From positions 1 through 64,000 of IMG/VR virus record IMGVR_UViG_3300042868_008532: a stretch of 64,000 bases of DNA, one strand, 5' to 3'. The stretch is from an uncultured virus (IMG/VR IMGVR_UViG_3300042868_008532). Lineage: Duplodnaviria; Heunggongvirae; Uroviricota; Caudoviricetes. The stretch's first letter is position 1. Each line of letters begins with the position of its first letter. The position numbers were made by a program, and so were the translations under genes. Under the pieces are notes generated by a model. That model saw only the letters and a list, made by a program, of their open reading frames with translations, did not search any database and was not told the DNA's origin. Positions 6,619 through 63,929 of this stretch are shown here, piece after piece.

Positions 6619-7329
6619 ATGATAAAAATACCTTTAACTAAAATATTATTTTTAGATATAGAAACTGTTGGAATTGAAAAAGATTATGACACTTGTTTAG
6701 AAAAGAGACCTGAACTCGCTAAACAATTTGACAAATATTACGATTGGTTTTTAAAACGATTTCCTGAAGATAAGGAAATTGAAGTTAACCAAAAAAATAC
6801 AGTGTTTGCAACAAGAACAGCTTTAGTTCCTGAATTTGCAAAAATTGTTTGTATGAGTGTTGCGTTTGTAATGGATAATGGAGATATAAAAAAAACAACC
6901 TTTTCCGGAGACAACGAAAAAGAGGTATTAAAAGAATGTCAAAAATTATTAGACCGTTGTGGTAAATTAGATTTTTTTCTATGTGGACATAATTTAAAAA
7001 ACTTTGACATTCCAATGACAGCTAAAAGAATGATTATTAATGGATTATTACCCCCATCAATTCTACCTTCTTACGATACAAAGCCGTGGGAAATCAAAGC
7101 TATTGATACTAGAGAAATTTGGCAATATGGTGCTTATACAGCGATTGGGTCATTAGACTTGATGTGTACTTCAATGGAAGTTCCATCACCAAAAGAGGGT
7201 GAAGTTACCGGAGATAAAGTACACGACGCATATTGGAACAAAGATATGTTAGAAGAAATATCTGCATATTGTGAACGTGACGTATTAGTCTTAATTGACA
7301 TAATAAAAAAATTAAAAGAATTAGAATAA
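6619..7329 (+). CDS. 3'-5' exonuclease, DnaQ/PolB-exo-like
   Basis: ExoI FLDIET, ExoII GHNLKNFDIP, ExoIII YCERDV. Confidence 0.85.
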   Translation: MIKIPLTKILFLDIETVGIEKDYDTCLEKRPELAKQFDKYYDWFLKRFPEDKEIEVNQKNTVFATRTALVPEFAKIVCMSVAFVMDNGDIKKTTFSGDNEKEVLKECQKLLDRCGKLDFFLCGHNLKNFDIPMTAKRMIINGLLPPSILPSYDTKPWEIKAIDTREIWQYGAYTAIGSLDLMCTSMEVPSPKEGEVTGDKVHDAYWNKDMLEEISAYCERDVLVLIDIIKKLKELE

Positions 7330-8009
7330 TGTTTAACGAAGATTTAGATTTTTTAAAAAACAAAGCGGAAGAATTAAAAAAATTAGCGAATATTGATTTA
7401 GATGATTTAAGTTATGATGATATAATGAGTGAATTTGGTTTGGATTTAAAACAACTTGAAGAAGATATGTTAAATTCAAAAACAAGATTACCATTAGGAT
7501 TTGTAAAAATTCATCCCGACGCAATAACCCCGAAATATAATTATGATAGTGATTCAGGTTTTGACCTACATTCTGTTGAAGATGTTACCATAGAAGCTTT
7601 CGGTCGAGCGTTAGTTCCTAGCGGACTATCCTTTGATATTAAAGATGGATATGAGATTCAAGTTAGGACTAAAAGTGGTTTAGCCATTAATCAGGGTCTT
7701 ATGGTTTTAAACTCACCTGGAACTGTGGATTGTTTTTCAGAAGATATGAAAATACTAACAATTAAGGGTGAAAAAACGATAAATGAATTAAATCTTAATG
7801 ATGTTATCTTTTCATTTAATGAAAAGACATTAGAAATTGAAAAAGATATTATTACCAACATTTTTAACACGGAAGAACAGGAAATAATTGTTTTTGAAAC
7901 TGACAATGGAATATTAGAGGTTACACCTAATAGTGAAGTTTATACTAAAAGAGGGTTATTGTTGGCTAAAGATGTGAAAGAAAATGATGAGATTATTGTT
8001 TTTTATTAA
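7329..8009 (+). CDS. dut: dUTPase N-terminal part fused to the N-half of a split intein (IntN 7731-8006)
   Basis: dUTPase motifs SGFDL, RTKSGLA, NSPGTVD, then intein block A CFSEDMKILT and block B EVTPNSEVYT..G; ORF ends after 92 intein residues. Confidence 0.9.
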   Translation: MFNEDLDFLKNKAEELKKLANIDLDDLSYDDIMSEFGLDLKQLEEDMLNSKTRLPLGFVKIHPDAITPKYNYDSDSGFDLHSVEDVTIEAFGRALVPSGLSFDIKDGYEIQVRTKSGLAINQGLMVLNSPGTVDCFSEDMKILTIKGEKTINELNLNDVIFSFNEKTLEIEKDIITNIFNTEEQEIIVFETDNGILEVTPNSEVYTKRGLLLAKDVKENDEIIVFY

Positions 8010-8045: not shown

Positions 8046-8930
8046 ATGGTAAAATGTTTAATTTGTGGGGTAGAAAAAAAATGTTCAATTGTTGAACATT
8101 TAAAATTTGTACATCAATTAAAATCTGATGAGTATAAAAAAATGTTCTTTGGTTCAAAAGTTAAATCAGATGACGAACTATTAAAAATGTCGGATAGAGC
8201 CAAAAAAAATTGGAGTAGTCCTGAGTATAAAGAATCTCAAATTAAAATTAGAAAAATTACACATCAAGACCCAATTTTTAAAGAAAAGATGTCTGAAACT
8301 TTAAAGAAAAAACATAAAGAAAATCCGGAGTTATTCACAGGATTTACTCAATGGTCTAAAACTGAGAAATATAAAGAATGGGTTATATCAAAAGAACGAA
8401 CAGATAAAATATCTAAAACTAGTAAAAAAAGATGGGAGAATGACGAATATCGAGAAAAAACCATCAATTCTATTAAGAAATCATTAAATGATGGAAGGTG
8501 TGATAAATCGTTAGAGTTTAGAGAAAAAATGTCAATAATTATTTCAAAATTATATGCAAATGGTACAATATCTAACGAATCAAATAAATATAAAACAGGT
8601 AAATATAATTCAAAAACAAATGAGGTATTTTTATATTCCTCATCATATGAATTGGAATCTATGGTATTATTTGATGATTCCAACAATATAAAAAGTTGGA
8701 CTAATAAACATGGAATTAGAATTAAATATTTTTATAATAATTTAAATAGAAATTATGTTCCCGATTTTTTAGTTGAGTTTATAAATGGAGTTACTTATAT
8801 TATTGAAATGAAAGGATGGAACACTGAAGAGGTTGATATTAAAGAATATTACACAAAAAAAACATACCCTAACTATAAAATATTCTATAGTGTTAACGAA
8901 TTAAAACAATTTATAAATGAAAACAACTAA
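8046..8930 (+). CDS. Free-standing putative homing endonuclease (C2H2 finger, NUMOD3-like repeats, TnsA-like PD-(D/E)XK nuclease)
   Basis: CLIC...HLKFVH; repeated K..MS helical motifs; YSSSYE...YVPDFLVEF...IIEMKG; lies between the two intein halves. Confidence 0.75.
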   Translation: MVKCLICGVEKKCSIVEHLKFVHQLKSDEYKKMFFGSKVKSDDELLKMSDRAKKNWSSPEYKESQIKIRKITHQDPIFKEKMSETLKKKHKENPELFTGFTQWSKTEKYKEWVISKERTDKISKTSKKRWENDEYREKTINSIKKSLNDGRCDKSLEFREKMSIIISKLYANGTISNESNKYKTGKYNSKTNEVFLYSSSYELESMVLFDDSNNIKSWTNKHGIRIKYFYNNLNRNYVPDFLVEFINGVTYIIEMKGWNTEEVDIKEYYTKKTYPNYKIFYSVNELKQFINENN

Positions 8931-9222
8931 AATACTTAAAATTTCAAAAACAAGAAAACAAACTTATGATATTACCGTTGAAAATAATCATAATTTTTTC
9001 TGTAACAATCATTTAATTCATAATTGTGGTTATACCGGAGAAGTTAAAGGAATTATATTTAACACCAATAATCATCCTGTAACAATAACTAAAGGAATGA
9101 AATTTGGTCAAGCGGTGTTGTGTCCCGTTGTAAATGGGGGTTGGGTTCATTTGGACCAAAGAGACAAAGTTACAGATAAAGAAAGAGGTGATAATGGGTT
9201 TGGCTCAACAGGATTAATATGA
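8917..9222 (+). CDS. dut: Split intein C-half (36 aa, 8917-9024) fused to dUTPase C-terminal part
   Basis: Blocks F/G TYDITVENNHNFFCNNHLIHN, then Cys+1; CGYTGEVK, GQAVL and ERGDNGFGSTG complete dUTPase motifs 3-5. Confidence 0.9.
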   Translation: MKTTKILKISKTRKQTYDITVENNHNFFCNNHLIHNCGYTGEVKGIIFNTNNHPVTITKGMKFGQAVLCPVVNGGWVHLDQRDKVTDKERGDNGFGSTGLI

Positions 9223-48724: not shown

Positions 48725-48755
48725 TTTGTACACTCAATATTTTACATTACTTTTG
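48725..48755 (+). promoter_or_regulatory. Bacteroidota sigma-ABfr-type promoter of clpC
   Basis: TTTG (48725) - 19 nt - TACTTTTG (48748). Confidence 0.75.
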
Positions 48756-51737: not shown

Positions 51738-53102
51738 TTAATTTATTCTAATAAATCCTTCAAATAATTCAGGAGAAACTAAAAAATTATTAAATTCTTC
51801 TTCAGTGTAACTTCTATCTTCCATACCACCATCTTTTTTAAAAACTTGAACAATTATTTTATTTGTTGCCGGGTCAATTTTTCTAATAAAAAACTCTCTA
51901 CCTGATTTAGTTTTATATCTATTATTCATTTTATAATTTTGAGCAATTCGGTTATATAATTCTGAATATCCATGAATATCGGCAAACTCATCAGAATCCT
52001 CTATTTTTTCAAATATTTTATCTAATTGTTTTTCAACGACATTATTATAATATACCTCATCAAAGTCTTCACAATATATCTCCCATCTATTTTCGTCCCA
52101 TCCACCAATATTACTATCTCTGTGTCCAATATCTTTAAGTAAATCATATAAACTTAATGTTTTATCCCCAACACTATTATATATTGATAATAATATACCT
52201 ACTGTGGTATAATATTCTCTAAAACAATTTTGTCTAATTAATCCATAATTTGAAAAATAATCACAAACATCTCCTTCTATCCATTTTTCAGCCCCTTTAT
52301 TTTTACAAGCATTTTCTTCATTAACCCAATCACTAAGTATATAATCGATTTCGTTCGGAAACATACTTTCAACCGTTTTTGATGCCGCCGATTTTACTTC
52401 ATCATTTTCCAAATTAGCCACACCTGGACTAATAAGTTTTAGTATTTGTTTAAATTTAATAAGATTTTCGTCGGAAAAAGAATGTATTAAATAACCTTCA
52501 TCCCATTCATTCGATGCGTGGTCGTAATCAACAAAATCAAACATCCCATAATCAGAATAGACTGATTCCGCAAACGAAATATCGTATTCATCAAGTTCAA
52601 ATAATTTTAAGTAATCTTCCATTTCATCAAAAGAAAGTTTAACCATACTTTTATTTGGATTTTTTTCGTTATATATAAATTTCCAAATAAGACTATCAGC
52701 CCTTTCCATTTGATTAGTAGTCACTTTTTCACCGTTTTTAACCGCTAACAATAATTTGTACACATCTGATTGTCCAACAATATTATCAATAACTGATTTA
52801 ACCTCATCCGGTAAATCTGACTCAAATTCATGACGATTCATTTCTCTATGTCTACGAACTTCACTACCATAATATTCTATTTTATTATCTTGTGTTTTAT
52901 GAATAACTGATGTTTGGATTGGCTCCTTATCTTTATCTATAATAAAGTAAGTGTCCCCCTCTCTATACTTATTCCACTCAGATTTATAGTTTTCCGGAGC
53001 GTAATATACAAAGGAATCGTAATCCAATGGGTCTACGACCATCCAATCTTCATTATCTAATAGTATGTTTTTTGTTCCGTTAAAGTCCTTCGTATCAGGC
53101 AT
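51738..53102 (-). CDS. Hypothetical acidic phage protein
   Basis: 454-aa ORF. Confidence 0.7.
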   Translation of the reverse strand: MPDTKDFNGTKNILLDNEDWMVVDPLDYDSFVYYAPENYKSEWNKYREGDTYFIIDKDKEPIQTSVIHKTQDNKIEYYGSEVRRHREMNRHEFESDLPDEVKSVIDNIVGQSDVYKLLLAVKNGEKVTTNQMERADSLIWKFIYNEKNPNKSMVKLSFDEMEDYLKLFELDEYDISFAESVYSDYGMFDFVDYDHASNEWDEGYLIHSFSDENLIKFKQILKLISPGVANLENDEVKSAASKTVESMFPNEIDYILSDWVNEENACKNKGAEKWIEGDVCDYFSNYGLIRQNCFREYYTTVGILLSIYNSVGDKTLSLYDLLKDIGHRDSNIGGWDENRWEIYCEDFDEVYYNNVVEKQLDKIFEKIEDSDEFADIHGYSELYNRIAQNYKMNNRYKTKSGREFFIRKIDPATNKIIVQVFKKDGGMEDRSYTEEEFNNFLVSPELFEGFIRIN

Positions 53103-53134
53103 TGATATTTATTTTAATAATAAATATAATTTTA

Positions 53135-53165
53135 TTTGGATTTATCCAAAAATGTATTATCTTTG
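53135..53165 (+). promoter_or_regulatory. Bacteroidota-type promoter of tmRNA
   Basis: TTTG (53135) - 19 nt - TATCTTTG (53158). Confidence 0.8.
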
Positions 53166-53179
53166 TGGTATCAAAATAT

Positions 53180-53573
53180 GGGAGTGACACGGAATTGACT
53201 ATTCGTAATAGTTATTCGGGGCACGTAGTGAGATGTTCTCTATCACTTAAATCTATGGGTACAACAATTTAGACGGAAACGTTTTAAACAAAATGGCTCT
53301 AGTAGGTCTTGTACGTCAAGATGAGCTTGTGAACGTAGCGTAAGCAAACACACATTGGGGTCGGTGGACATATAACCCAGCAACAGGAGTCCTTAAAAAG
53401 GTGTGGTACCTATCCGAAAAGGTACAAGTGGAGGATTAGTTCTCAGTAAACCGAACCACTCTAAAAATAAGGGAATTGTGAAATTTTGGATTGTTAGCTT
53501 AAACAATATCCTAAACGTGTAGTCCTTAATAGGTAATACAAGTAACACCGGAGTTCGAGTCTCCGCACTTCCA
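53180..53573 (+). ncRNA. ssrA: tmRNA; tag ORF 53275-53343 (A)GNVLNKMALVGLVRQDELVNVA*
   Basis: 5' GGGAGTGACACGGAATTGAC; 3' T-arm CGGAG TTCGAGT CTCCG and CACTTCC-A; acceptor stem with G3.U Ala determinant; UA at -5/-4 of the GGA resume codon; smpB nearby. Confidence 0.92.
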
Positions 53574-53580
53574 CAAAAAG

Positions 53581-53609
53581 AAAAACCCATCATACGATGG
53601 GTTTTTTTG
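53581..53609. terminator. Terminator after tmRNA
   Basis: AAAACCCATC ATAC GATGGGTTTTTTT. Confidence 0.85.
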
Positions 53610-53632
53610 TTATCAGTTCAAATGTTTATTTT

Positions 53633-53992
53633 TTAATCTTGTAATAAATCCTTTGTTACCGGATTTAATTTAGTTACTAATTTATCTAATCTTGAATCAA
53701 TAGTTCTATATACCTCATCAAGACCTTTGTTTGTATCCTCAGCTCTAGCATTTATATATCTATTGGTCTCAGCATACAATTCGTCGGTTCGTTTAATCTC
53801 ACCATCTATACGACGATGTAGGTCATCACCTGTTCTATTTATTTCTGTGAAGATGTGTCCTTGTACTTGTTCCAATTGGGAACATTTATTTTTTAATCTT
53901 TTAATCTGAATGTACATCATAACCACAACTCCAACTCCCAGTACCCCGAGAACCAAAACTATACCCATAATGAACGATGTTAAATCTACCAT
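53633..53992 (-). CDS. Single-TM coiled-coil membrane protein
   Basis: Hydrophobic N-terminal helix then heptad repeats. Confidence 0.65.
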   Translation of the reverse strand: MVDLTSFIMGIVLVLGVLGVGVVVMMYIQIKRLKNKCSQLEQVQGHIFTEINRTGDDLHRRIDGEIKRTDELYAETNRYINARAEDTNKGLDEVYRTIDSRLDKLVTKLNPVTKDLLQD

Positions 53993-54032
53993 AATTTCTT
54001 TTTTTTTATTTGTTTATTATTGAACTGATAAT

Positions 54033-54413
54033 TTATTGTTTAACTCCTCCCCACAAATAACCATCACCATATGAAGTACATATTTCTTCACCGGGTTGGA
54101 TTGTTTGTAAAGAGTAAAATTGAAATGCTCGTTTAGTTGGGTGATTTCTCCACATTGCGTTATTAGTATCTGAATGATTATATATACATCCATACCCTAA
54201 TGGTATCACATATTCAGTCCAATTTGGTCCTTGAGGATAACAAAATCTATAATCATCAAGTAATCTTGATTGTTCCCATTTTTTTGTTGGTAAAGTCACT
54301 AAATGACATTCTTCAATCAACTCATCTTTTTCAATGACATCAATTGCAAATACCCCCATTCCTTTTCCTGGAGAGGGTTTAATCTCTATTTTGGTCGGTA
54401 TTAATAAATTCAT
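54033..54413 (-). CDS. SET-domain protein (putative lysine methyltransferase)
   Basis: GKGMGVFA, YNHS..NN, I.PGEEICTSYG. Confidence 0.88.
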   Translation of the reverse strand: MNLLIPTKIEIKPSPGKGMGVFAIDVIEKDELIEECHLVTLPTKKWEQSRLLDDYRFCYPQGPNWTEYVIPLGYGCIYNHSDTNNAMWRNHPTKRAFQFYSLQTIQPGEEICTSYGDGYLWGGVKQ

Positions 54414-54438
54414 AAGTAAATTATAATAAAAAAAGAGA

Positions 54439-54876
54439 CTATTTCAAGTCTCTTTTCATATCTCTTTCAATGTCCCGAGATTTAATACTGTCTCGTTTAT
54501 CGTATGTCTTCTTTCCTTTGGCAAGAGCAATCTCCATCTTAACTAACCCGGTATCATTTATGAATACACGATAAGGAACGATGGTGGTTCCGTTGATTAG
54601 TTCGTTCTCCAATTTATTAAGTTCTTTTCGTTTAAGTAATAGTTTTCTATCCTTTACGGTCTCGTGAAAGGACCCGAACCCATAATCAGAGATATTCATT
54701 CCCTTTATAAACAACTCACCATTGTTGAAGTAACAAAACCCCTCAGATATGGAGACCTTTCCCTGACGGATGGACTTTACCTCTGAACCAACTAGTTTGA
54801 TTCCCACGATTAGTGTCTGTAGGAATGAATACTCAAACTTGGCTTTCTTATTGACTATGTTAATTGATTTTTTCAT
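54439..54876 (-). CDS. smpB: SsrA-binding protein SmpB
   Basis: NKKAKFEY, GI.L.GSEVKSIR.G, RKLLL...E, LAKGKK.YDKR; TATCTTTG promoter element at 54881-54888. Confidence 0.95.
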   Translation of the reverse strand: MKKSINIVNKKAKFEYSFLQTLIVGIKLVGSEVKSIRQGKVSISEGFCYFNNGELFIKGMNISDYGFGSFHETVKDRKLLLKRKELNKLENELINGTTIVPYRVFINDTGLVKMEIALAKGKKTYDKRDSIKSRDIERDMKRDLK

Positions 54877-54953
54877 ACGACAAAGATAATGATTTTTTTT
54901 CTAATAATTATGACTTTTTATACTTTTTGAGATATTTATAATAAAGAGATATT

Positions 54954-55106
54954 ATGAACCCAAGAAAAAAAGAAGAAGATAAAAAAGTAAAATTTGGAAT
55001 CTGTGTTGACCCGGTAATATACCAAAAAATGGAAGATGAGATGATTAACAAATCTCGCCTGATTGAAACACTATTGAAAGAACATTATGGAAAAAAAAGT
55101 TTGTAG
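54954..55106 (+). CDS. Small ribbon-helix-helix-like protein (absent from ORF track)
   Basis: MNPRKKEEDKKVKFGICVDPVIYQKMEDEMINKSRLIETLLKEHYGKKSL; overlaps the HNH start; TATTTATA at 54933. Confidence 0.65.
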   Translation: MNPRKKEEDKKVKFGICVDPVIYQKMEDEMINKSRLIETLLKEHYGKKSL

Positions 55107-55707
55107 TAAGTGTAAAGAAGAAAAAGAGGTTTGCGAGTTTGGGAAACGAAAAGATTCCAAAGATGGTCTGCGAAGTGAATGTAAAAGTTGTGCTAAAGAA
55201 TGGAGATTAAAGAATCGAGAACATTTATTAAAATATAATAAAAATTGGAAAAATTCTAATTCAGAACACGTTTATCATTATCATAAAAAATATAAAGAAG
55301 AAAATGATGAAGAATTAAAGAAATATCAAAAAGAATGGTATCTACAAAATAAAAATATTCTTAATGAAAAAATAAAACTAAAAAAATTAACAAACCCAAT
55401 ATTTTTAGTTTCGTGTTCAGTTAGAAAAAGAATGTCCGAGTATATTAAAAAAAATAATATATTGAAAAAAAATAAAACTTTTAAAGTTGTTGGATTGAAC
55501 CCTATTGAATTATCTCATTACTTGGAAACTCAATTTACAGAAGGAATGTCTTGGAATAACTATGGAAAGTATGGGTGGCATATTGACCATATAATTCCGT
55601 TATCTTCAGCAAAAAATGAAAATGAACTTTATAAGTTATGTCATTATACTAATCTCCAACCACTATGGGCAGAAGACAATCTAAAAAAATCAAATAAACT
55701 ATTATAA
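55087..55707 (+). CDS. HNH homing endonuclease with N-terminal Cys4 zinc motif
   Basis: CSKC...CKSC; WHIDHIIPLS...HYTNLQPLWAEDNLKKSN. Confidence 0.85.
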   Translation: MEKKVCSKCKEEKEVCEFGKRKDSKDGLRSECKSCAKEWRLKNREHLLKYNKNWKNSNSEHVYHYHKKYKEENDEELKKYQKEWYLQNKNILNEKIKLKKLTNPIFLVSCSVRKRMSEYIKKNNILKKNKTFKVVGLNPIELSHYLETQFTEGMSWNNYGKYGWHIDHIIPLSSAKNENELYKLCHYTNLQPLWAEDNLKKSNKLL

Positions 55708-55710
55708 ACA

Positions 55711-55745
55711 AAAAAAGGTGTCACAAATTAATGTAACACCTTTTT
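55711..55745. terminator. Bidirectional terminator between HNH gene and giant ncRNA
   Basis: AAAAAAGGTGT.ACA...TGT.ACACCTTTTT. Confidence 0.75.
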
Positions 55746-55746
55746 G

Positions 55747-56592
55747 GCTTAATACGATGAGAATACTCGTCTTATTGAGAATCTTCGGAAGGATTATTGT
55801 TTCCCTTCTTTTCCACCATCTTTTGAATGGTAATCCTCATTGCCGATTGGTTAGACCAATCACTCCTTAAGATATCATTTACTCTCTCATTATTCAACTC
55901 TCTTTAACCTTGCGAGCTAACTCCGGATTCGACTCCGTAGAGGTTTTTGGCGAGAATACATTCAGACTTGCGGTCATCCTGTGCAACGAACAGCTCGTTA
56001 CTATGTAGGCAACTTGTCAATGATACCTGACAGACACTTTTGCTTTTTTCTGTTTAGTTTTTCACCATATTGAAAATAGTTATTGTGTTGTGGATGTGTC
56101 CAAGTAGAGGTCTGTCTTAGGCTTCATCATCTTTTGGACGAAGAAATACCAACCTACTCGGTAGAGCGTCCCCACTCTCATATTTTAAGAATTCTTCGAA
56201 TCAAAATCTTGGTAGATGTTTGATAAGGATAATGACAGCACCACCTGTTACTTATCTTGTCTTTCGACTTTAAGATTTCTCTCATATTGGAACCCGTAAT
56301 AATTAAGTTGGATAACCTAACTTCTTACTTGATTCCTATCACTTATTCCTATTGGAGTTCCCCCCTCAACCGAAAGACCCACATCTCCCGGTCACCTAAC
56401 CACTTTCTCTAAAGCGTTGCCCTCAATACTGAAGGTCAGATGGTATGTGACTTGTATACTCGAGTCCCATTTCTGAGACCGCAAACCTGTTAACACAACA
56501 GATTCACTTTAGCCCGGTTTCCCGGTTTATTTAAGGATGATATACCACCCATTATCGTTTTTTACTCCACCGAAGTGGGTAAAGGATAATCT
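55747..56592 (-). ncRNA. Giant structured ncRNA, GOLLD-like (~850 nt)
   Basis: ORF-free, higher GC, many GNRA/UUCG-capped hairpins on the minus strand, own promoter (56635-56665) and terminator, next to tRNA-like genes. Confidence 0.65.
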
Positions 56593-56634
56593 AAAATTTC
56601 TAAGAACGTCTTGAGGTTTCCCTCATTTGTTTTA

Positions 56635-56665
56635 CAAAGGTAAGTGATTTTTTTCATTTGTCAAA
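56635..56665 (-). promoter_or_regulatory. Bacteroidota-type promoter for the giant ncRNA
   Basis: TTTG - 19 nt - TACCTTTG on the minus strand. Confidence 0.75.
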
Positions 56666-56697
56666 CACTTTTGTAATTTTTTTTTATTTTTTTTTAA

Positions 56698-56927
56698 TCT
56701 GTGATAAGACCTTAAGATTTACTCATTCGTAGGTCACCCATTCTGTACTACCTAAAACTCGCCTTTAACATCCGTTCTACCCAAACCATCGTTTATTTCT
56801 TGTTAACCTCACGGTTATCTTTGAGTACCTCCTCAACTGTAATCTGATAGGGACTCCATATTGCTCGTCATTTCTGACTCCCTATGGGGTTCTGCTGTAA
56901 TAGGTCTATCTGCTATCTTATCACAGA
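56698..56927 (-). ncRNA. Candidate structured ncRNA (230 nt)
   Basis: Perfect 12-bp terminal inverted repeat TCTGTGATAAGA/TCTTATCACAGA, internal hairpins, no ORF in the track. Confidence 0.5.
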
Positions 56928-57075
56928 ATAAAATTTGTAAACCCTTGAGAAGGAATCTGTGGGCGTGTATAGGATTACTTGTCTACCTTCTATCCATCCG
57001 GGTCTCTCACCCGACGAAACTTTACTACAAATAAATTCGTAGTTCCATCCCCCACCAAATTATGGTTTACTTTTG

Positions 57076-57165
57076 TGGTATCAGATGGGCTCGAACCACC
57101 GGCACAGAGTCTTTCGTTACTCCTGCTCTACCAAAGGAGATAAATCTCCACTGAGCTATAATACC
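57076..57165 (-). tRNA. Atypical tRNA-like gene (hairpin inserted in D-loop, 8-nt non-canonical anticodon loop)
   Basis: Acceptor GGTATTA/TGATACC, D-stem GCTC/GAGC, T-arm GGTGG TTCGAGC CCATC; anticodon not assignable. Confidence 0.6.
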
Positions 57166-57175
57166 ATATATTTTA

Positions 57176-57248
57176 GTGGACGTATGCTCTACCATCTGAG
57201 CTACGGGGTTAAGACCGGAGGGATTTGAATCCTCGACACAACGTCCAC
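57176..57248 (-). ncRNA. Circularly permuted tRNA-like RNA (T arm, closed acceptor, D arm)
   Basis: GTGGACGT..GAGGA TTCAAAT CCCTC CGG(8)CCG TA GCTC AGATGGTA GAGC..ACGTCCAC. Confidence 0.6.
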
Positions 57249-57286
57249 CTATTTTTTCAATAATTTTAAGAACTTTATTTCTTCTA

Positions 57287-57318
57287 CAAAGATAATACTT
57301 TTATTTTAATATATCAAA
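57287..57318 (-). promoter_or_regulatory. Bacteroidota-type promoter upstream of the permuted tRNA-like RNA
   Basis: TTTG - 20 nt - TATCTTTG. Confidence 0.7.
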
Positions 57319-57477
57319 TTATTTTAAAAATAATTCTAACAATTTTGTAATACCTAAACCAAAACACATTCCGGCAACAAAATAACTGAATGCGGGATTT
57401 CTACCTTTTTCTTTTTGAATTTTTGCACCGTATAGATTTATAACCGTCAATCCGAATTGTATTAATACTATTTCCAT
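57319..57477 (-). CDS. Small membrane protein (52 aa)
   Basis: MEIVLIQFGLTVINLYGAKIQKEKGRNPAFSYFVAGMCFGLGITKLLELFLK; own promoter at 57504-57534. Confidence 0.55.
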   Translation of the reverse strand: MEIVLIQFGLTVINLYGAKIQKEKGRNPAFSYFVAGMCFGLGITKLLELFLK

Positions 57478-57521
57478 AATTTGTTTCTTTTTTAATTAGA
57501 GTACAAAGATAATACTATTTT

Positions 57522-57674
57522 TTAATCTACCAAATCTTTTTTTGAATTTTCATCAATTTTTTTTAATTCACTAATAAGTTGGTTACCGTACCACTCTAAC
57601 CATTCAATATGGGTAAACTTTGAATCCGGATTATCCGACATAAAGTTTTTGTATTGTGTTTCTAATGTTGCCAT
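57522..57674 (-). CDS. Small hypothetical protein (50 aa)
   Basis: MATLETQYKNFMSDNPDSKFTHIEWLEWYGNQLISELKKIDENSKKDLVD. Confidence 0.55.
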   Translation of the reverse strand: MATLETQYKNFMSDNPDSKFTHIEWLEWYGNQLISELKKIDENSKKDLVD

Positions 57675-57689
57675 ATAATTTAATTTTAG

Positions 57690-57766
57690 TAGTCAGAACA
57701 GGATTCGAACCTGTGTGTCCACATAAGGGGTTTCCTTACCGTGCATCTCCAATGTGCTACCTGACT
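57690..57766 (-). tRNA. tRNA-like repeat unit 3 (no valid anticodon arm)
   Basis: AGTCAGG...ACAGG TTCGAAT CCTGT TCTGACT A. Confidence 0.55.
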
Positions 57767-58008
57767 AAATTGTGAATCAAAAAATTTCAGCCTTAGCTCA
57801 AAAATATCATCACACGATAAGACTTCTTTGTATGGTTCAGGTATCTAAACAACCTAGGTCATTCTGAATCTTCATATCATTAAAGCAATACCTTTTTTAA
57901 GGTTCAAATCCGAACTGTAACTCATTTATTCCTTAACTTACCTAAATAAGTCTCTATGTTTATTCATAGCCCCTGTAGATACTACAGGTAGTTGACATCG
58001 TCGATTTG

Positions 58009-58153
58009 TAGTCAGGACAGGATTCGAACCTGTAAGGTATAACCACTAAAATCGTGGAGATGGAGGTCAATTCCTCTTTTACAATACCAACCTGTGAGCG
58101 TCTACCATCAGGAATTAGCTTTATCAGTGCTACCCTTGTTCCGCCACCTGACT
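58009..58153 (-). tRNA. tRNA-like repeat unit 2 (145 nt; D-loop insertion, expanded centre)
   Basis: AGTCAGG TG GCGGAA[~30 nt]TGGTAGACGC...ACAGG TTCGAAT CCTGT CCTGACT A. Confidence 0.55.
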
Positions 58154-58158
58154 ATTTA

Positions 58159-58321
58159 AAAACTAATGGTGTGTTGTTACACCAAGATACGAGGTTCGTT
58201 ACCACCTACGTGTGACACCCAATAACGATTTCCCTGGATGTTGACTTTTTGTCCGTACACTCCCACAAGGGGACAACTCCTTAGAAGATGGATACTATCA
58301 ATCCCACTTCCCATTAGTTTT
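58159..58321 (-). ncRNA. Candidate structured ncRNA between tRNA-like units 1 and 2
   Basis: 11-bp terminal stem AAAACTAATGG/CCATTAGTTTT spans almost the whole spacer. Confidence 0.5.
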
Positions 58322-58322
58322 G

Positions 58323-58424
58323 TAGTCAGGACAGGATTCGAACCTGTTCCGTCTTTGCCATAAAGAGTCGGCCTTACCGTTACTCAACCTTGGGGAGGTG
58401 ATACCAACCAATGGTCTCCTAACT
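58323..58424 (-). tRNA. tRNA-like repeat unit 1 (102 nt)
   Basis: AGTTAGG...ACAGG TTCGAAT CCTGT CCTGACT A. Confidence 0.55.
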
Positions 58425-58438
58425 ATTTTATTATGGTA

Positions 58439-58469
58439 CAAAGATAATACTTTATTTTAATTTACCAAA
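58439..58469 (-). promoter_or_regulatory. Bacteroidota-type promoter driving the tRNA-like array
   Basis: TTTG - 19 nt - TATCTTTG, ending 14 nt before unit 1. Confidence 0.75.
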
Positions 58470-58543
58470 TTTATTTTATAAAAATCTGATAAAAATCCGT
58501 CTTTTAATATTTTTCCGGATATTTATATATAAATAACATTATA

Positions 58544-58696
58544 ATGGGTAGACCTAAATTAAAAGAAGACGATAAAAAAGGTAAATTAGGTATAACAATA
58601 TCTAAAGAACTTATCAATAAAATAAACAAAATTACAAATAATAAATCATTATTTATTGAAGAATTAATTATTAAATATTTCAAGAATGGAGAATAA
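58544..58696 (+). CDS. Small ribbon-helix-helix-like protein (absent from ORF track)
   Basis: MGRPKLKEDDKKGKLGITISKELINKINKITNNKSLFIEELIIKYFKNGE; similar to 54954..55106. Confidence 0.65.
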   Translation: MGRPKLKEDDKKGKLGITISKELINKINKITNNKSLFIEELIIKYFKNGE

Positions 58697-59306
58697 AATA
58701 TGTTCTAAATGTAAAGTTGAAAAACTATTATGTGATTTTCATAATAATAAAAAAGAGAAGAGTGGTAAAAACTGTCAATGTAAAAGTTGTGTAAAACTTT
58801 GTTATAAATATATTAAAAAAATACCCATTATAAATTTAGAAGAATCTATTAAAAAAGAAAATTTAAGAAAATTAAAAAAAAGTGTGTATAATAAAAAGTA
58901 TCGTGAAGAAAATCGTGAAATATTAAAGAAGAAAAAAAATATTTATAAACAAATTAGGATAAATGAAAATCCTTTAGTTAAACTACGTTTTAGGATTTCC
59001 AATAACATAACTGTTTCGTTAAAACGAAATGGTGGTAAAAAATTAAGTAAAACTACTAATATTTTAGGGTGTTCTTTTGATGATTTTAAGAAACATATTG
59101 AATTATTATGGGAATCTTGGATGAGTTGGGAAAATTATGGTAACCCAAAAGATGGTATTTATCAACCAAATAAAACTTGGGATTTAGACCATATAACTCC
59201 ATCCTCAAAGGCAACATCTGAAGAAGAAATACTTAAATTAAATCATTATAGTAACTTTCAACCATTATGTTCTTATAATAACAGATTCATAAAAAAAGGT
59301 GACTAA
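58686..59306 (+). CDS. HNH homing endonuclease with N-terminal Cys4 zinc motif
   Basis: CSKC...CKSC; WDLDHITPSS...HYSNFQPLCSYNN; paralogue of 55087..55707. Confidence 0.85.
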   Translation: MENKICSKCKVEKLLCDFHNNKKEKSGKNCQCKSCVKLCYKYIKKIPIINLEESIKKENLRKLKKSVYNKKYREENREILKKKKNIYKQIRINENPLVKLRFRISNNITVSLKRNGGKKLSKTTNILGCSFDDFKKHIELLWESWMSWENYGNPKDGIYQPNKTWDLDHITPSSKATSEEEILKLNHYSNFQPLCSYNNRFIKKGD

Positions 59307-59319
59307 TGTCACCTTTTTT
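59292..59319. terminator. Bidirectional terminator
   Basis: AAAAAAGGTGAC TAAT GTCACCTTTTTT. Confidence 0.8.
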
Positions 59320-59467
59320 ATAATTTTAACAAAAAACTATGTCAATCCACCAAAACTGTTAAAATCTCCTACTTACCTATATGGGCTCGGCCATCCCGTT
59401 GTCATATTGATTTACCTGAAACTTCTTTGGGTTGTTGATTGACCACTCCCACTTACTCAAGTAGTTT

Positions 59468-59722
59468 TTACATACTCATCATCCAACCCATTCGGTTTTG
59501 TTCTTGATACTGAGAATAAGTACATTTTCTCATTGTCTTATAATCCGGTCTCAACTTAACGTGAGTTGGGTATTTTTTTTCGTGTTCTTTGTGTTCTCTC
59601 ACCACTTTAGCGTAAGCCTCTCTTTTACTTGGTGCCCACACGTCATTAAATCCTCCACCTATCCAATTGAATAAATATAAATACTCCCCGTTAACACTTC
59701 TATATAATTTCTCTTTAGTCAT
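59468..59722 (-). CDS. Hypothetical phage protein
   Basis: 84-aa ORF. Confidence 0.65.
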   Translation of the reverse strand: MTKEKLYRSVNGEYLYLFNWIGGGFNDVWAPSKREAYAKVVREHKEHEKKYPTHVKLRPDYKTMRKCTYSQYQEQNRMGWMMSM

Positions 59723-59725
59723 AAT

Positions 59726-59896
59726 TTATCCGTGATTTTCTTTATGTAGTAAGGTTCCAAAAGCATTTGAACCAATTGAAATTAGTAAATATCCAAACCA
59801 AATACCGTTTGTTTTAATAGTTAATCCAACAACCACAAATCCAATTATAACCAATAGACTTAATAAAGATAATGTGTGTTTTGATAATTTTGTCAT
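59726..59896 (-). CDS. Small two-TM membrane protein (56 aa)
   Basis: MTKLSKHTLSLLSLLVIIGFVVVGLTIKTNGIWFGYLLISIGSNAFGTLLHKENHG; promoter at 59920-59950. Confidence 0.55.
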   Translation of the reverse strand: MTKLSKHTLSLLSLLVIIGFVVVGLTIKTNGIWFGYLLISIGSNAFGTLLHKENHG

Positions 59897-59950
59897 AATA
59901 ATTAGTTTTAAATTCGGTACAAAGATAATACTTATTTTTAATCCACCAAA

Positions 59951-60172
59951 TTATTTTTCATAAATTAAATCAGTTTTTTCACAACCATCTTTTAATTCAA
60001 GTAAACCATTTCTACATTGTCTTTTGATAATGTCTAAAATAACTGATAATTCGTCCGATTTTTTTCTATTTATTTTCCCCCAATCTAATGAACCCCATTT
60101 AAAAGTGGATTCTATCGTTTTTAGTTCTAAAATAAACTCCTTTTTTTCAGTATTAGTTTGCCAATTACTCAT
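59951..60172 (-). CDS. Hypothetical phage protein
   Basis: 73-aa ORF; TTTG-19-TATCTTTG promoter at 60197-60227. Confidence 0.6.
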   Translation of the reverse strand: MSNWQTNTEKKEFILELKTIESTFKWGSLDWGKINRKKSDELSVILDIIKRQCRNGLLELKDGCEKTDLIYEK

Positions 60173-60360
60173 AATTTTATATTTTTAAATCCGGTACAAA
60201 GATAAGCATTAAATCGACATCTCCAAATATTATTTTAATTTTTTTCAAAAAAATTTTTTACGATAACGATTACGTAAATTAATTTGGCATAAAACTTGAT
60301 ATTACGGATTTGTTAACCTATTTATTTAACGAAATTAAACATTATTTAAAACAAATTATT

Positions 60361-61810: not shown

Positions 61811-61840
61811 AAAAAAAGTGGGATATTACTCCCACTTTTT
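61811..61840. terminator. Terminator hairpin
   Basis: AAAAAAAGTGGGA TTATTAC TCCCACTTTT. Confidence 0.75.
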
Positions 61841-62865
61841 TACAACTTTTTAAATTCCGGTCTTATTAGATTCCATATGATTTCAGAGTAATTTTTCTTA
61901 TCAAACATTCTAAACAGAATCCCTGACATATGTTTAGGTTGAGTGAATACCCACTCAGCAAACTCTTTTCTATCTTCTATGGGTTCTTTATCGTTATATT
62001 TACCATACATCATACCATCAAACTTTTTACCAGCATCCTCAGATATTTGGAAATGACTATATCTTAAATCTCTAACATAAGATTTAATTTTATTGTAAAA
62101 TTCGTCTGGAACATCTTTTAATATTTCCATAACATCCTCACCATTTTTCAAATACTCCCAAACTCCGGTTGTGGTAACATTGGTCATAATTTTGTGAAGA
62201 CGAAGATACTCAACACCTTTAACTTTAACTCTATCCCCATTGGAGAACTTCACCACAAACCCTTCTTGGTCGTTTTTAACCATTTCTTTGAGTTGTTTGT
62301 AGTCGTTTATACCATCGTATTTTTTAACCACATCAAACCCGTATTCTCTCCACATTTCCACATCATATTCTTTACCATTCTTATCAAAGGTTCCCAATAG
62401 GACTAACCCTTCATAATCACCGTAATCTACTACCACGCGATTCTGAGGAAATAAAATTTCAAAACAAAAAGTCAGATGTCTGAACATTATATCGGTGTTG
62501 TATTTTTTAAGTAATTCTCTACCCTTAATTGCTTGGTCTGAACCAAATGACCCACGAGTCGCTAATATCCATTGTCCTTCGTACCAAAAAACTATTAAAA
62601 GTGAGCCATCCATTTTTTCATACACCTCAAAGTTTTCAGTTGGTTCAAATTTTCCTTCCTCTATGTTGAAGAATTTATCAAAAGGTTTTGCTACGATATC
62701 TCCGGTGTGGTCGGTAACTAAACCTCTACACATCAAAAGAGTTTCGTCCCACAAATTTTCATACTGGACTTTTTCGCTATAGTTCCATATAGTTAATGGG
62801 AGGTATGGATGTACTTGTTTGTAAAGTAATCCGTCTTCGTAATATTTGTTTAGTTTTTCTATCAT
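61840..62865 (-). CDS. RNA ligase, T4 Rnl1-like
   Basis: CRGLV, F.KFFN, EKMDGSL, ATRGSF, EGFVV, RVKVKG.EY..LH. Confidence 0.9.
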   Translation of the reverse strand: MIEKLNKYYEDGLLYKQVHPYLPLTIWNYSEKVQYENLWDETLLMCRGLVTDHTGDIVAKPFDKFFNIEEGKFEPTENFEVYEKMDGSLLIVFWYEGQWILATRGSFGSDQAIKGRELLKKYNTDIMFRHLTFCFEILFPQNRVVVDYGDYEGLVLLGTFDKNGKEYDVEMWREYGFDVVKKYDGINDYKQLKEMVKNDQEGFVVKFSNGDRVKVKGVEYLRLHKIMTNVTTTGVWEYLKNGEDVMEILKDVPDEFYNKIKSYVRDLRYSHFQISEDAGKKFDGMMYGKYNDKEPIEDRKEFAEWVFTQPKHMSGILFRMFDKKNYSEIIWNLIRPEFKKL

Positions 62866-62866
62866 T

Positions 62867-63193
62867 TTATTCTATTTTTTTTAAATTCTCTTCTAATCTA
62901 CTTAAGAATGATTCTTCACCATCATCACCTGATAACAACCAATCCACTCGTTGAGCGTATTCTTGAGCAATTTTAAGAGCTTTAACTGCATCTTTCATCT
63001 TCTCAATAACCTCATCCGGATATTTGTAATGGAATAAGTCCTCAGGGTATTTTTTATACCAATCAGGGTCAATCCAATGTTCTTTAAGTTCTTCCGGTGT
63101 TTTTTCTAAACCATTCTTCACAATAACCTCATCTATTTGGTCTGCGATGTAACCAATCTTATATTGGTTATAATCGAAATGCCCACCACTAAT
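62867..63193 (-). CDS. Hypothetical phage protein; frame is open from ATT at 63193 (ISGGHFDYNQYKI...), GTG at 63121 is the first standard start
   Basis: In-frame 24-codon extension upstream of the ORF-track call. Confidence 0.55.
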   Translation of the reverse strand: MSGGHFDYNQYKIGYIADQIDEVIVKNGLEKTPEELKEHWIDPDWYKKYPEDLFHYKYPDEVIEKMKDAVKALKIAQEYAQRVDWLLSGDDGEESFLSRLEENLKKIE

Positions 63194-63929
63194 GACTCAC
63201 TCTCCCATCTTTATTTATATTCATAGTTTTAATATAATTTTCGTTATTTATAATTTTACTAATATGTGATTGGTTAACACCATACATTTGAGCAATTTTT
63301 GTTTGACTTACCCCCTCTTTGTTCAATTTTTTTATCTCATTATAATCACATTCCTCTAACTTAACATATTGTTTTTTTCTTAAAGACAAATCTAAATCTG
63401 TTGCAATAGTTTTATATCTTTTCTCAATCAAAATCAAACCAATTGTTCTCCTACTTACAGAATATAAATCACTAATTTCTTTTTGAGTTAATTTATTTTC
63501 AATTAACAACAATTTTATCTCTCGAACTTGTTCCGGTGTTAACTTTTTTAAGGATGACTCATAATGTCCGTGAATTTTACCAACGTTAACACTTTTGTTT
63601 GAGGAGCCTATCTTATCTTTTGTGTCTTGTGACATATACACATAACCTTCCATTGATTTAGGTAAACGACAATTTAAACCTATTTTATTATCTAAACATT
63701 CATAAAATGTACCATAAAATAACTCCCGTTCTAAAAGAATTTCAATATCACATTCTTCAATAACTTCAAAAATGTGATTATCAACACCATATTTTACTAA
63801 CGAGTTATATAATTTAGTTTGACTATTACATCTTAATTTTTTATACCACTTCCAACGAGTATCAACATCTTTTGATGAACCGATATATACAAGACCTTTT
63901 GGACTTGTTATTTTATAAACTCCAATCAT
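63189..63929 (-). CDS. GIY-YIG homing endonuclease with C-terminal HTH repeats
   Basis: GVYKI...YIGSS..V..R; E.FY...N; NUMOD3-like MSQDTKDKIG; two HTH motifs. Confidence 0.88.
   Translation of the reverse strand: MIGVYKITSPKGLVYIGSSKDVDTRWKWYKKLRCNSQTKLYNSLVKYGVDNHIFEVIEECDIEILLERELFYGTFYECLDNKIGLNCRLPKSMEGYVYMSQDTKDKIGSSNKSVNVGKIHGHYESSLKKLTPEQVREIKLLLIENKLTQKEISDLYSVSRRTIGLILIEKRYKTIATDLDLSLRKKQYVKLEECDYNEIKKLNKEGVSQTKIAQMYGVNQSHISKIINNENYIKTMNINKDGRVSH

Follow-up and report, generated by a model that had tools for sequence, protein, structure and literature searches.

The locus and its neighbourhood

The window, by which we mean the whole 64,000-nt stretch of DNA that was analysed, is part of a 77,856-nt IMG/VR virus record with a CheckV completeness of 26%. 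The record encodes T4-type major capsid, portal, prohead protease, and terminase proteins, and the host of the GOLLD RNA gene described here is a T4-like jumbo phage from lake or fresh water. Of the words sampled from 55700-56700, 14 lake-water DNA runs each contain at least 86%, and six metatranscriptome runs contain 40 to 47%. The GOLLD gene has the following neighbours:

53180-53576, plus strand: phage tmRNA (Rfam RF00023, 65.7 bits against a gathering score of 47)
54439-54876, minus strand: SmpB (Pfam PF01668, E 3.3e-48)
55087-55707, plus strand: ORF with a weak HNH match (17.6 bits, under the cut-off), between GOLLD and smpB
57075-57165, minus strand: tRNA-Thr(GGT) (ARAGORN; Rfam tRNA model, 36.7 bits)
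57157-57261, minus strand: weak YrlA (Y-RNA-like) match (34.3 bits against a gathering score of 69, E 3e-5)
57690-57766, 58005-58153, and ~58310-58425, minus strand: three tRNA-like elements with a near-identical T-arm and acceptor 3' strand, CAGGTTCGAATCCTGTCCTGACTA
61840-62865, minus strand: Rnl1-type RNA ligase (T4 Rnl1; PF09511, E 2.5e-18), just past the RNA island
63189-63929, minus strand: GIY-YIG plus HTH protein, just past the RNA island

Genes for a SET-domain protein and a ClpB-like ATPase also lie near GOLLD. The tmRNA was not called by ARAGORN. The tRNA-Thr gene, with its 91 nt, a hairpin insert in the D-loop, and an 8-nt anticodon loop (Rfam alignment and MFE fold), may not be a standard decoder. 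The YrlA-like element has a permuted tRNA-like order, with the T-arm ahead of the D-arm, and no Ro/TROVE protein was found among the window ORFs scanned. The three tRNA-like elements vary widely in the size of their inserts (77, ~149, and ~116 nt); two of them score 32.6 and 26.6 bits with the Rfam tRNA model, and ARAGORN calls none of the three (57690-58425). The Rnl1-type ligase at 61840-62865 suggests tRNA repair.

Two paralogous 206-aa ORFs of low GC content, 55087-55707 and 58686-59306 (both plus strand; 35% identity, E 8e-28), bracket the RNA island on the strand opposite to the RNAs and are likely homing endonucleases. Between the tRNA-Thr gene and the GOLLD promoter, 56700-57070 is GC-rich and ORF-free. 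This stretch is cut by differing deletions in four relatives (L175, L151, L127, and L130) and is thus indel-rich among close relatives; we considered it as a second large RNA and dropped it on account of these deletions and of the lack of an Rfam match.

GOLLD identity and covariation

GOLLD is a giant, ornate phage RNA; its reference member, env-38, comes from a marine metagenome and was seen by cryo-EM as a protein-free, hollow cage of 14 subunits (Kretsch et al. 2025; PMC12286853). The gene in the window consists of the following parts, in the order of transcription (A2 is the alignment of relatives described below):

56635-56665, minus strand: promoter, TTTG (-33)-19 nt-TACCTTTG (-7), by pattern match and conservation
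56557-56628, minus strand: leader of ~70 nt with the hairpins GAGG-GAAA-CCUC and CCAC-UUCG-GUGG
56162 to ~56556, minus strand: GOLLD 5' domain (the cage cap in env-38), by homology to other GOLLDs and covarying helices
55754-56161, minus strand: GOLLD 3' domain (the cage ring in env-38), Rfam RF02032
56045-56100, minus strand: variable A/C-rich linker in the 3' domain, from poorly conserved A2 columns
55712-55745, minus strand: intrinsic terminator, a 14-bp hairpin followed by a T run

A preliminary description of the locus, made from the sequence alone, had proposed a GOLLD RNA on grounds of size, context, and style, and cmsearch bore this out: RF02032 matches 55754-56161 on the minus strand at 306.3 bits, against a gathering score of 150 (E 1e-86), and the match spans model positions 1 to 416 of 416 and is not truncated. 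RF02032 represents only the conserved 3' half of GOLLD, and the 5' half has no Rfam model. The other families that had been named for comparison, ROOL, OLE, group I and II introns, and RNase P, gave no match at E <= 1 on either strand of 52500-60000. The first coordinates, 55747-56592, were nearly exact, as the core runs from 55754 to ~56553-56556 and the unit from promoter to terminator from 55712 to ~56628. At ~800 nt (~56556 to 55754), the core places a large 5' domain ahead of the conserved 3' domain.

The simpler observations of the preliminary description also stand. The longest ORFs that overlap 55747-56592 have 51 aa (56257-56412, plus strand) and 50 aa (55718-55870, plus strand), and none reaches 60 aa. 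GC content is above that of the flanks, at 0.40 to 0.42 across 55750-56650 versus 0.23 to 0.31 in 55150-55900 and 0.34 in 56500-56800. All five hairpins that it had named are present on the minus strand, and 55712-56630 of this strand folds at -264.2 kcal/mol with a z score of -5.5 (20 shuffles), compared with -2.9 for the plus strand. The setting is that of a GOLLD as well, in a phage and near tRNA genes: the locus belongs to an IMG/VR virus record, a tRNA gene lies at 57075-57165, and the sequence recurs in lake-water metagenome runs, as had been claimed.

Homologues extend the assignment to the 5' half. Among 50,697 phage records, blastn matched two, both of them huge uncultured phages: LR756502 (642 kb) and LR745206 (635 kb). 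Their RNAs score 275 and 287 bits with the Rfam GOLLD model and align with the window in both halves. These two phages resemble the window copy in whole-RNA homology (66 to 70% blastn identity) and in encoding SmpB, and differ from it in that tRNA genes directly flank the RNA, smpB is 67 to 88 kb away, and the 5' domains carry extra hairpin insertions. Relatives in IMG/VR were gathered by two scans for 5'-domain motifs, and an nhmmer profile run on the 346 loci listed gave at least nine full-length copies (L156, L189, L127, L151, L175, L130, L298, L296, and L164; E <= 1e-142). L156 does not differ from the window at any position of the RNA (100% identity) and is therefore not independent, which leaves eight independent IMG/VR loci. 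Over its whole length, the 5' half (56162 to ~56553) thus has homologues in the GOLLDs of 10 further large phage records, namely L002, L003, and these eight loci, with L156 as an additional second copy of the window. Its motifs include a GAAA loop at 56518-56521, GAGGGCAAC, a GGAA loop, a GUC-GAAA-GAC hairpin, a GUGGUG loop, and UACCAAG. A pattern scan with the 3'-domain motif AAAAAGCAAAAGTNT was set aside; its at least 114 stretches are chance A-rich matches, because none of them matched the window RNA or the A1 profile in nhmmer.

The alignment A2 has 12 rows, 11 of them independent, from roughly three clades; four partial loci (L344, L335, L218, and L199) and L260, which is on the same contig as L127, were left out. 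RNAalifold predicted 190 pairs on these 12 rows, 120 of which show changes on both sides. When the two pairs between L20 and J13/15 (bridge B7, below) were added, 192 pairs were counted, with changes on both sides in 122. Paired cells amount to 98.6%, a figure inflated by the fact that the structure comes from the same alignment, versus 79.3% in shuffled alignments and 38 to 45% when partners were slid by one to three columns; the observed values were reached by none of 500 shuffles (A2, 12 rows, about three clades). Helices 2 to 20 fall within the 5' half, and 17 of these 19 contain double changes. Helix 1 of the RNAalifold structure (A2 columns 210-213 and 1104-1106) was discarded, with only three pairs that fall outside the published core.

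Promoter, possible processing, and RNA-library contigs

The pattern TTTG-N19-TANNTTTG, which matches the Bacteroidota promoter consensus, occurs seven times in the window versus 0.91 expected, a number that none of 100 shuffles reached. Two sites are on the plus strand (48725-48755 and 53135-53165, the latter 14 nt upstream of the tmRNA) and five on the minus strand (56635-56665, 57504-57534, 58439-58469, 59920-59950, and 60197-60227), and the motif stands upstream of GOLLD, the tmRNA, the ClpB-like gene, and tRNA-like genes. Several copies share a longer form, TTTGG-N-ATTAAAA-N-AGTATTATCTTTG. These seven motifs point to a Bacteroidota host and to a set of phage promoters. Generic sigma-70 promoters were dropped in favour of this motif, as a scan found seven sites in the window versus 8.7 expected and none at the GOLLD start.

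The promoter and the terminator claimed in the preliminary description are both supported by conservation. The TTG and TAnCTTTG blocks of the GOLLD promoter are kept in six of six aligned relatives, the divergent L164 included, and from its position a transcription start near 56628 may be predicted. The leader that would follow is partly conserved across relatives in the stretch GTTCTTAGAAATTTTAG and may be removed from the mature RNA. The close relatives L127, L151, L175, and L130 all retain the terminator (A2 columns 1107-1146), with altered positions in its stem. In distant relatives the GOLLD RNA has a tRNA immediately before or after it, and release there is therefore probably by tRNA processing.

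GOLLD positions 55766-56553 were covered by contigs of all four RNA libraries, which come from four lake or freshwater metatranscriptome studies; the region examined was 53000-59000, the runs had been chosen for GOLLD words, and the contigs show neither strand nor expression level. Some contigs have loose ends, presumably Illumina adapter sequence, and such adapter-tagged ends lie at 55757 (contig X19), at 55766 (X16), and 3 nt past 56553 (X16), the 5' end thus resting on a single contig of one run. Together they bound a core of ~800 nt (~56556 to 55757) that matches the span of the 833-nt env-38 construct. These ends, of which those at 55757 and 55766 lie upstream of the terminator, suggest that the ~70-nt leader and the terminator hairpin are trimmed.

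The surroundings of GOLLD are nearly empty in these libraries, with a contig depth of 0 to 4 over smpB, the SET gene, the HNH ORF, and the tRNA-like region and of 0 to 19 in the bin 56618-56818. This is a weak hint that the signal is RNA rather than contaminating DNA, as holes between contigs prove little in runs picked for GOLLD. The tmRNA, which played no part in the choice of runs, was covered by contigs from four of four libraries and has an adapter-tagged 3' end at 53575 (X19). Skip joints inside GOLLD were considered as splicing and rejected; they come from contigs of 90 to 95% identity, that is, from related strains with differing linkers.

Cage bridges, rival readings, and possible roles

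The comparison with env-38 was made by eye from the contact table (Supplementary Table 2) and the construct sequence given in PMC12286853. The 833-nt construct corresponds in this comparison to the window from ~56553 (start) to 55754 (end), and the 5' domain lines up with env-38 residues 1 to 420. Both RNAs have a two-domain layout, a variable internal linker, and a tRNA gene nearby. In some GOLLDs this linker holds a tRNA. The linker at 56045-56100 contains no tRNA that ARAGORN would call, and the equivalent env-38 linker (nt 497-538) lacks an ordered structure and points into the cage (PMC12286853). The window copy differs in having its own promoter, leader, and terminator, whereas env-38 lies downstream of a tRNA-Met; it also belongs to a freshwater T4-like jumbo phage and is known from sequence, whereas the env-38 cage is known from cryo-EM. 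The loops of the 3' domain that matter for the bridges between subunits are as follows:

56042-56043, minus strand: J13/15 dinucleotide GC, pairing with the L20 bases 55970-55971 (B7)
55968-55972, minus strand: L20 loop CGCAA, partner of J13/15
55910-55933, minus strand: L21a loop GUCGAA (palindromic CG, 55930-55931) and L21b loop CGCAA (GC, 55912-55913)

Loop motifs of nine of the ten env-38 bridges (B1 to B3 and B5 to B10) are kept in the window RNA. Relatives keep GAAA (B1), GAGGG.AAC (B2), GGAA (B3), GUGGUG with UACCAAG (B5), CAAAAG of L14 (B6), UCAAAAG (B10), and the conserved GAAA of L11a as well. The A-rich A-minor loops among them (L14, UCAAAAG, GAAA, GGAA, and L11a) are invariant or nearly so in the 12 rows, their mapping to env-38 being by eye.

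The contact between L20 and J13/15 was first predicted as a pseudoknot and later seen as the intermolecular bridge B7 of the env-38 cage (as reported in PMC12286853). In A2 (columns 799-800 and 873-874, helix 24) the two dinucleotides are complementary in every one of the 12 rows, with two-sided changes at both pairs: J13/15 over L20 reads GC/GC, UC/GA, or GG/CC. A fourth combination is that of env-38, UC/GA when read as L20 over J13/15, compared with GC/GC in the window. In env-38 the half-shells are held together by L21a and L21b, which are self-kissing loops (bridges B8 and B9; PMC12286853). L21a has UCGA in 11 of 12 rows, L164 having CGCAAG instead, and the GC of L21b is invariant in all 12. 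The L21a palindrome is CG in the window versus GC in env-38, and a GC/CG switch of this kind was what the structure's authors used as evidence for B8 (PMC12286853). The one bridge that is reduced is the B4 kissing loop, with a GG:CC core of ~2 to 3 pairs in all 12 rows versus 5 to 6 pairs in env-38, and the contacts of the cap may therefore differ.

Our results lead us to conclude that 55712 to ~56628 on the minus strand is very probably a complete GOLLD gene whose RNA would fold and multimerise like env-38. For multimerisation we rely on the kept loops of the bridges between subunits and on the covariation of B7 across relatives. The gene would be transcribed from its own promoter and ended at the hairpin terminator, the leader and the terminator hairpin would then be trimmed to give the ~800-nt core RNA, and this core could assemble into a homo-oligomeric RNA cage during infection.

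The alternative that deserves most weight is that the RNA is a true GOLLD homologue that makes no 14-mer cage and instead acts as a monomer, as another oligomer, or as a processed scaffold in a transcription island of tRNAs and tmRNA. The weakened B4 loop would fit this, as would the ~70-nt leader, which env-38 lacks, and the tRNAs that abut the RNA in distant relatives and suggest processing by tRNA-maturing enzymes. We nevertheless regard it as unlikely, given that nine of ten bridge motifs are kept, that the B7 covariation in 12 of 12 rows fits selection for a contact between subunits, and that the core boundaries match those of the construct that forms cages. Far less likely still is a decaying, non-functional remnant of GOLLD: the indels in the adjoining 56700-57070 among close relatives would be in keeping with decay, but the RNA itself matches the full-length model, is paired in 98.6% of cells with compensatory changes throughout, retains a conserved promoter, and is found in RNA-library contigs from four studies.

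We give almost no credence to two further readings. One, which the preliminary description had kept as a fallback, would make this giant structured RNA a new class with no relation to GOLLD; its sole support would be the missing Rfam model for the 5' half, and it is rejected by a full-length GOLLD model match that scores twice the gathering threshold and by a 5' half that lines up with env-38 along its length (by eye). The other is that the RNA belongs to another known family of large RNAs, as a group I or II intron, an RNase P RNA, ROOL, or OLE, since it is large, structured, and near tRNA genes, and ORFs resembling homing endonucleases flank the island. Against this, none of these families matched in the search of 52500-60000 on both strands, no interrupted host gene was seen around the RNA, and three close relatives (L127, L151, and L130) have the RNA but no counterpart of ORF 55087-55707, the GOLLD terminator directly adjoining smpB in them.

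If the window copy does form a cage, the cage might act on the translation apparatus during lytic growth, for example by holding tRNAs or ribosomes, a possibility that we put forward tentatively and consider less probable than not, because the gene sits in an island with tmRNA, SmpB, tRNA-like genes, and an RNA ligase. SmpB is encoded in all five of the large GOLLD-bearing records checked. The distance between GOLLD and smpB is 93 nt in the complete 308,574-nt relative G002, and it is 38 to 88 kb in the other four. The co-occurrence of GOLLD and SmpB is thus common, while adjacency is limited to one close clade, and this makes the link to translation a weak one. A more specific proposal, which we think rather improbable, is that GOLLD forms a module for translation rescue or takeover in this clade together with tmRNA and SmpB, the odd tRNA-like RNAs, and the Rnl1-type ligase, as GOLLD abuts smpB in close relatives and tmRNA was found in the same RNA libraries. 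The cage would then, for example, capture ribosomes or protect the tRNAs and tmRNA of the phage against host anticodon nucleases. For GOLLD cages in general, the authors of the structure propose tRNAs, ribosomes, or other cargo as contents (PMC12286853).

GOLLD has been described in other settings. In Mycobacterium it is expressed and belongs to a tRNA cluster that has moved by horizontal transfer and includes an HNH endonuclease gene (Behra et al. 2019; PMC6582537); the GOLLD passages of that paper do not link GOLLD and tmRNA. The window copy is similar in its nearby tRNA genes, HNH-like ORF, and RNA-library coverage, and differs in that the Mycobacterium copies are on bacterial chromosomes and have a pseudo-tRNA inside the RNA (PMC6582537), whereas the window copy has no internal tRNA. 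ROOL, another large RNA that phages carry near tRNAs, also forms a cage of RNA only, in this case of eight subunits (PMC12286853); its sequence and fold are unrelated to those of the window RNA. GOLLD was reported neither in jumbo phages nor next to smpB in the literature searched, the coverage of which was incomplete. Morgado et al. (2020) reportedly described GOLLD in Mycobacterium tRNA arrays.

As the family, its context of phages and tRNAs, and its lake origin are already known, the copy in the window adds a member to GOLLD and no new RNA class, and it leaves the definition of this rare natural RNA-only nanocage unchanged. What it does add is a clade of at least 11 independent full-length GOLLDs that come from jumbo and huge phages and can be aligned in the 5' domain with the solved structure. 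It also lends independent support, through covariation, to one bridge between subunits (B7) and supplies a defined Bacteroidota-type promoter and terminator. To this may be added the evidence from RNA libraries that GOLLD is made in lakes, with ends that match the construct that forms cages, and a recurrent neighbourhood with phage trans-translation genes that suggests a testable link to translation.

Elsewhere in the window, a dUTPase gene is seemingly split, with ORF 7329-8009 (plus strand) matching profile positions 3 to 64 and ORF 8917-9222 (plus strand) matching positions 71 to 129. A 294-aa ORF at 8046-8930 (plus strand), which has no Pfam match, lies between the two parts, and the split may reflect the insertion of an intron or a homing element.
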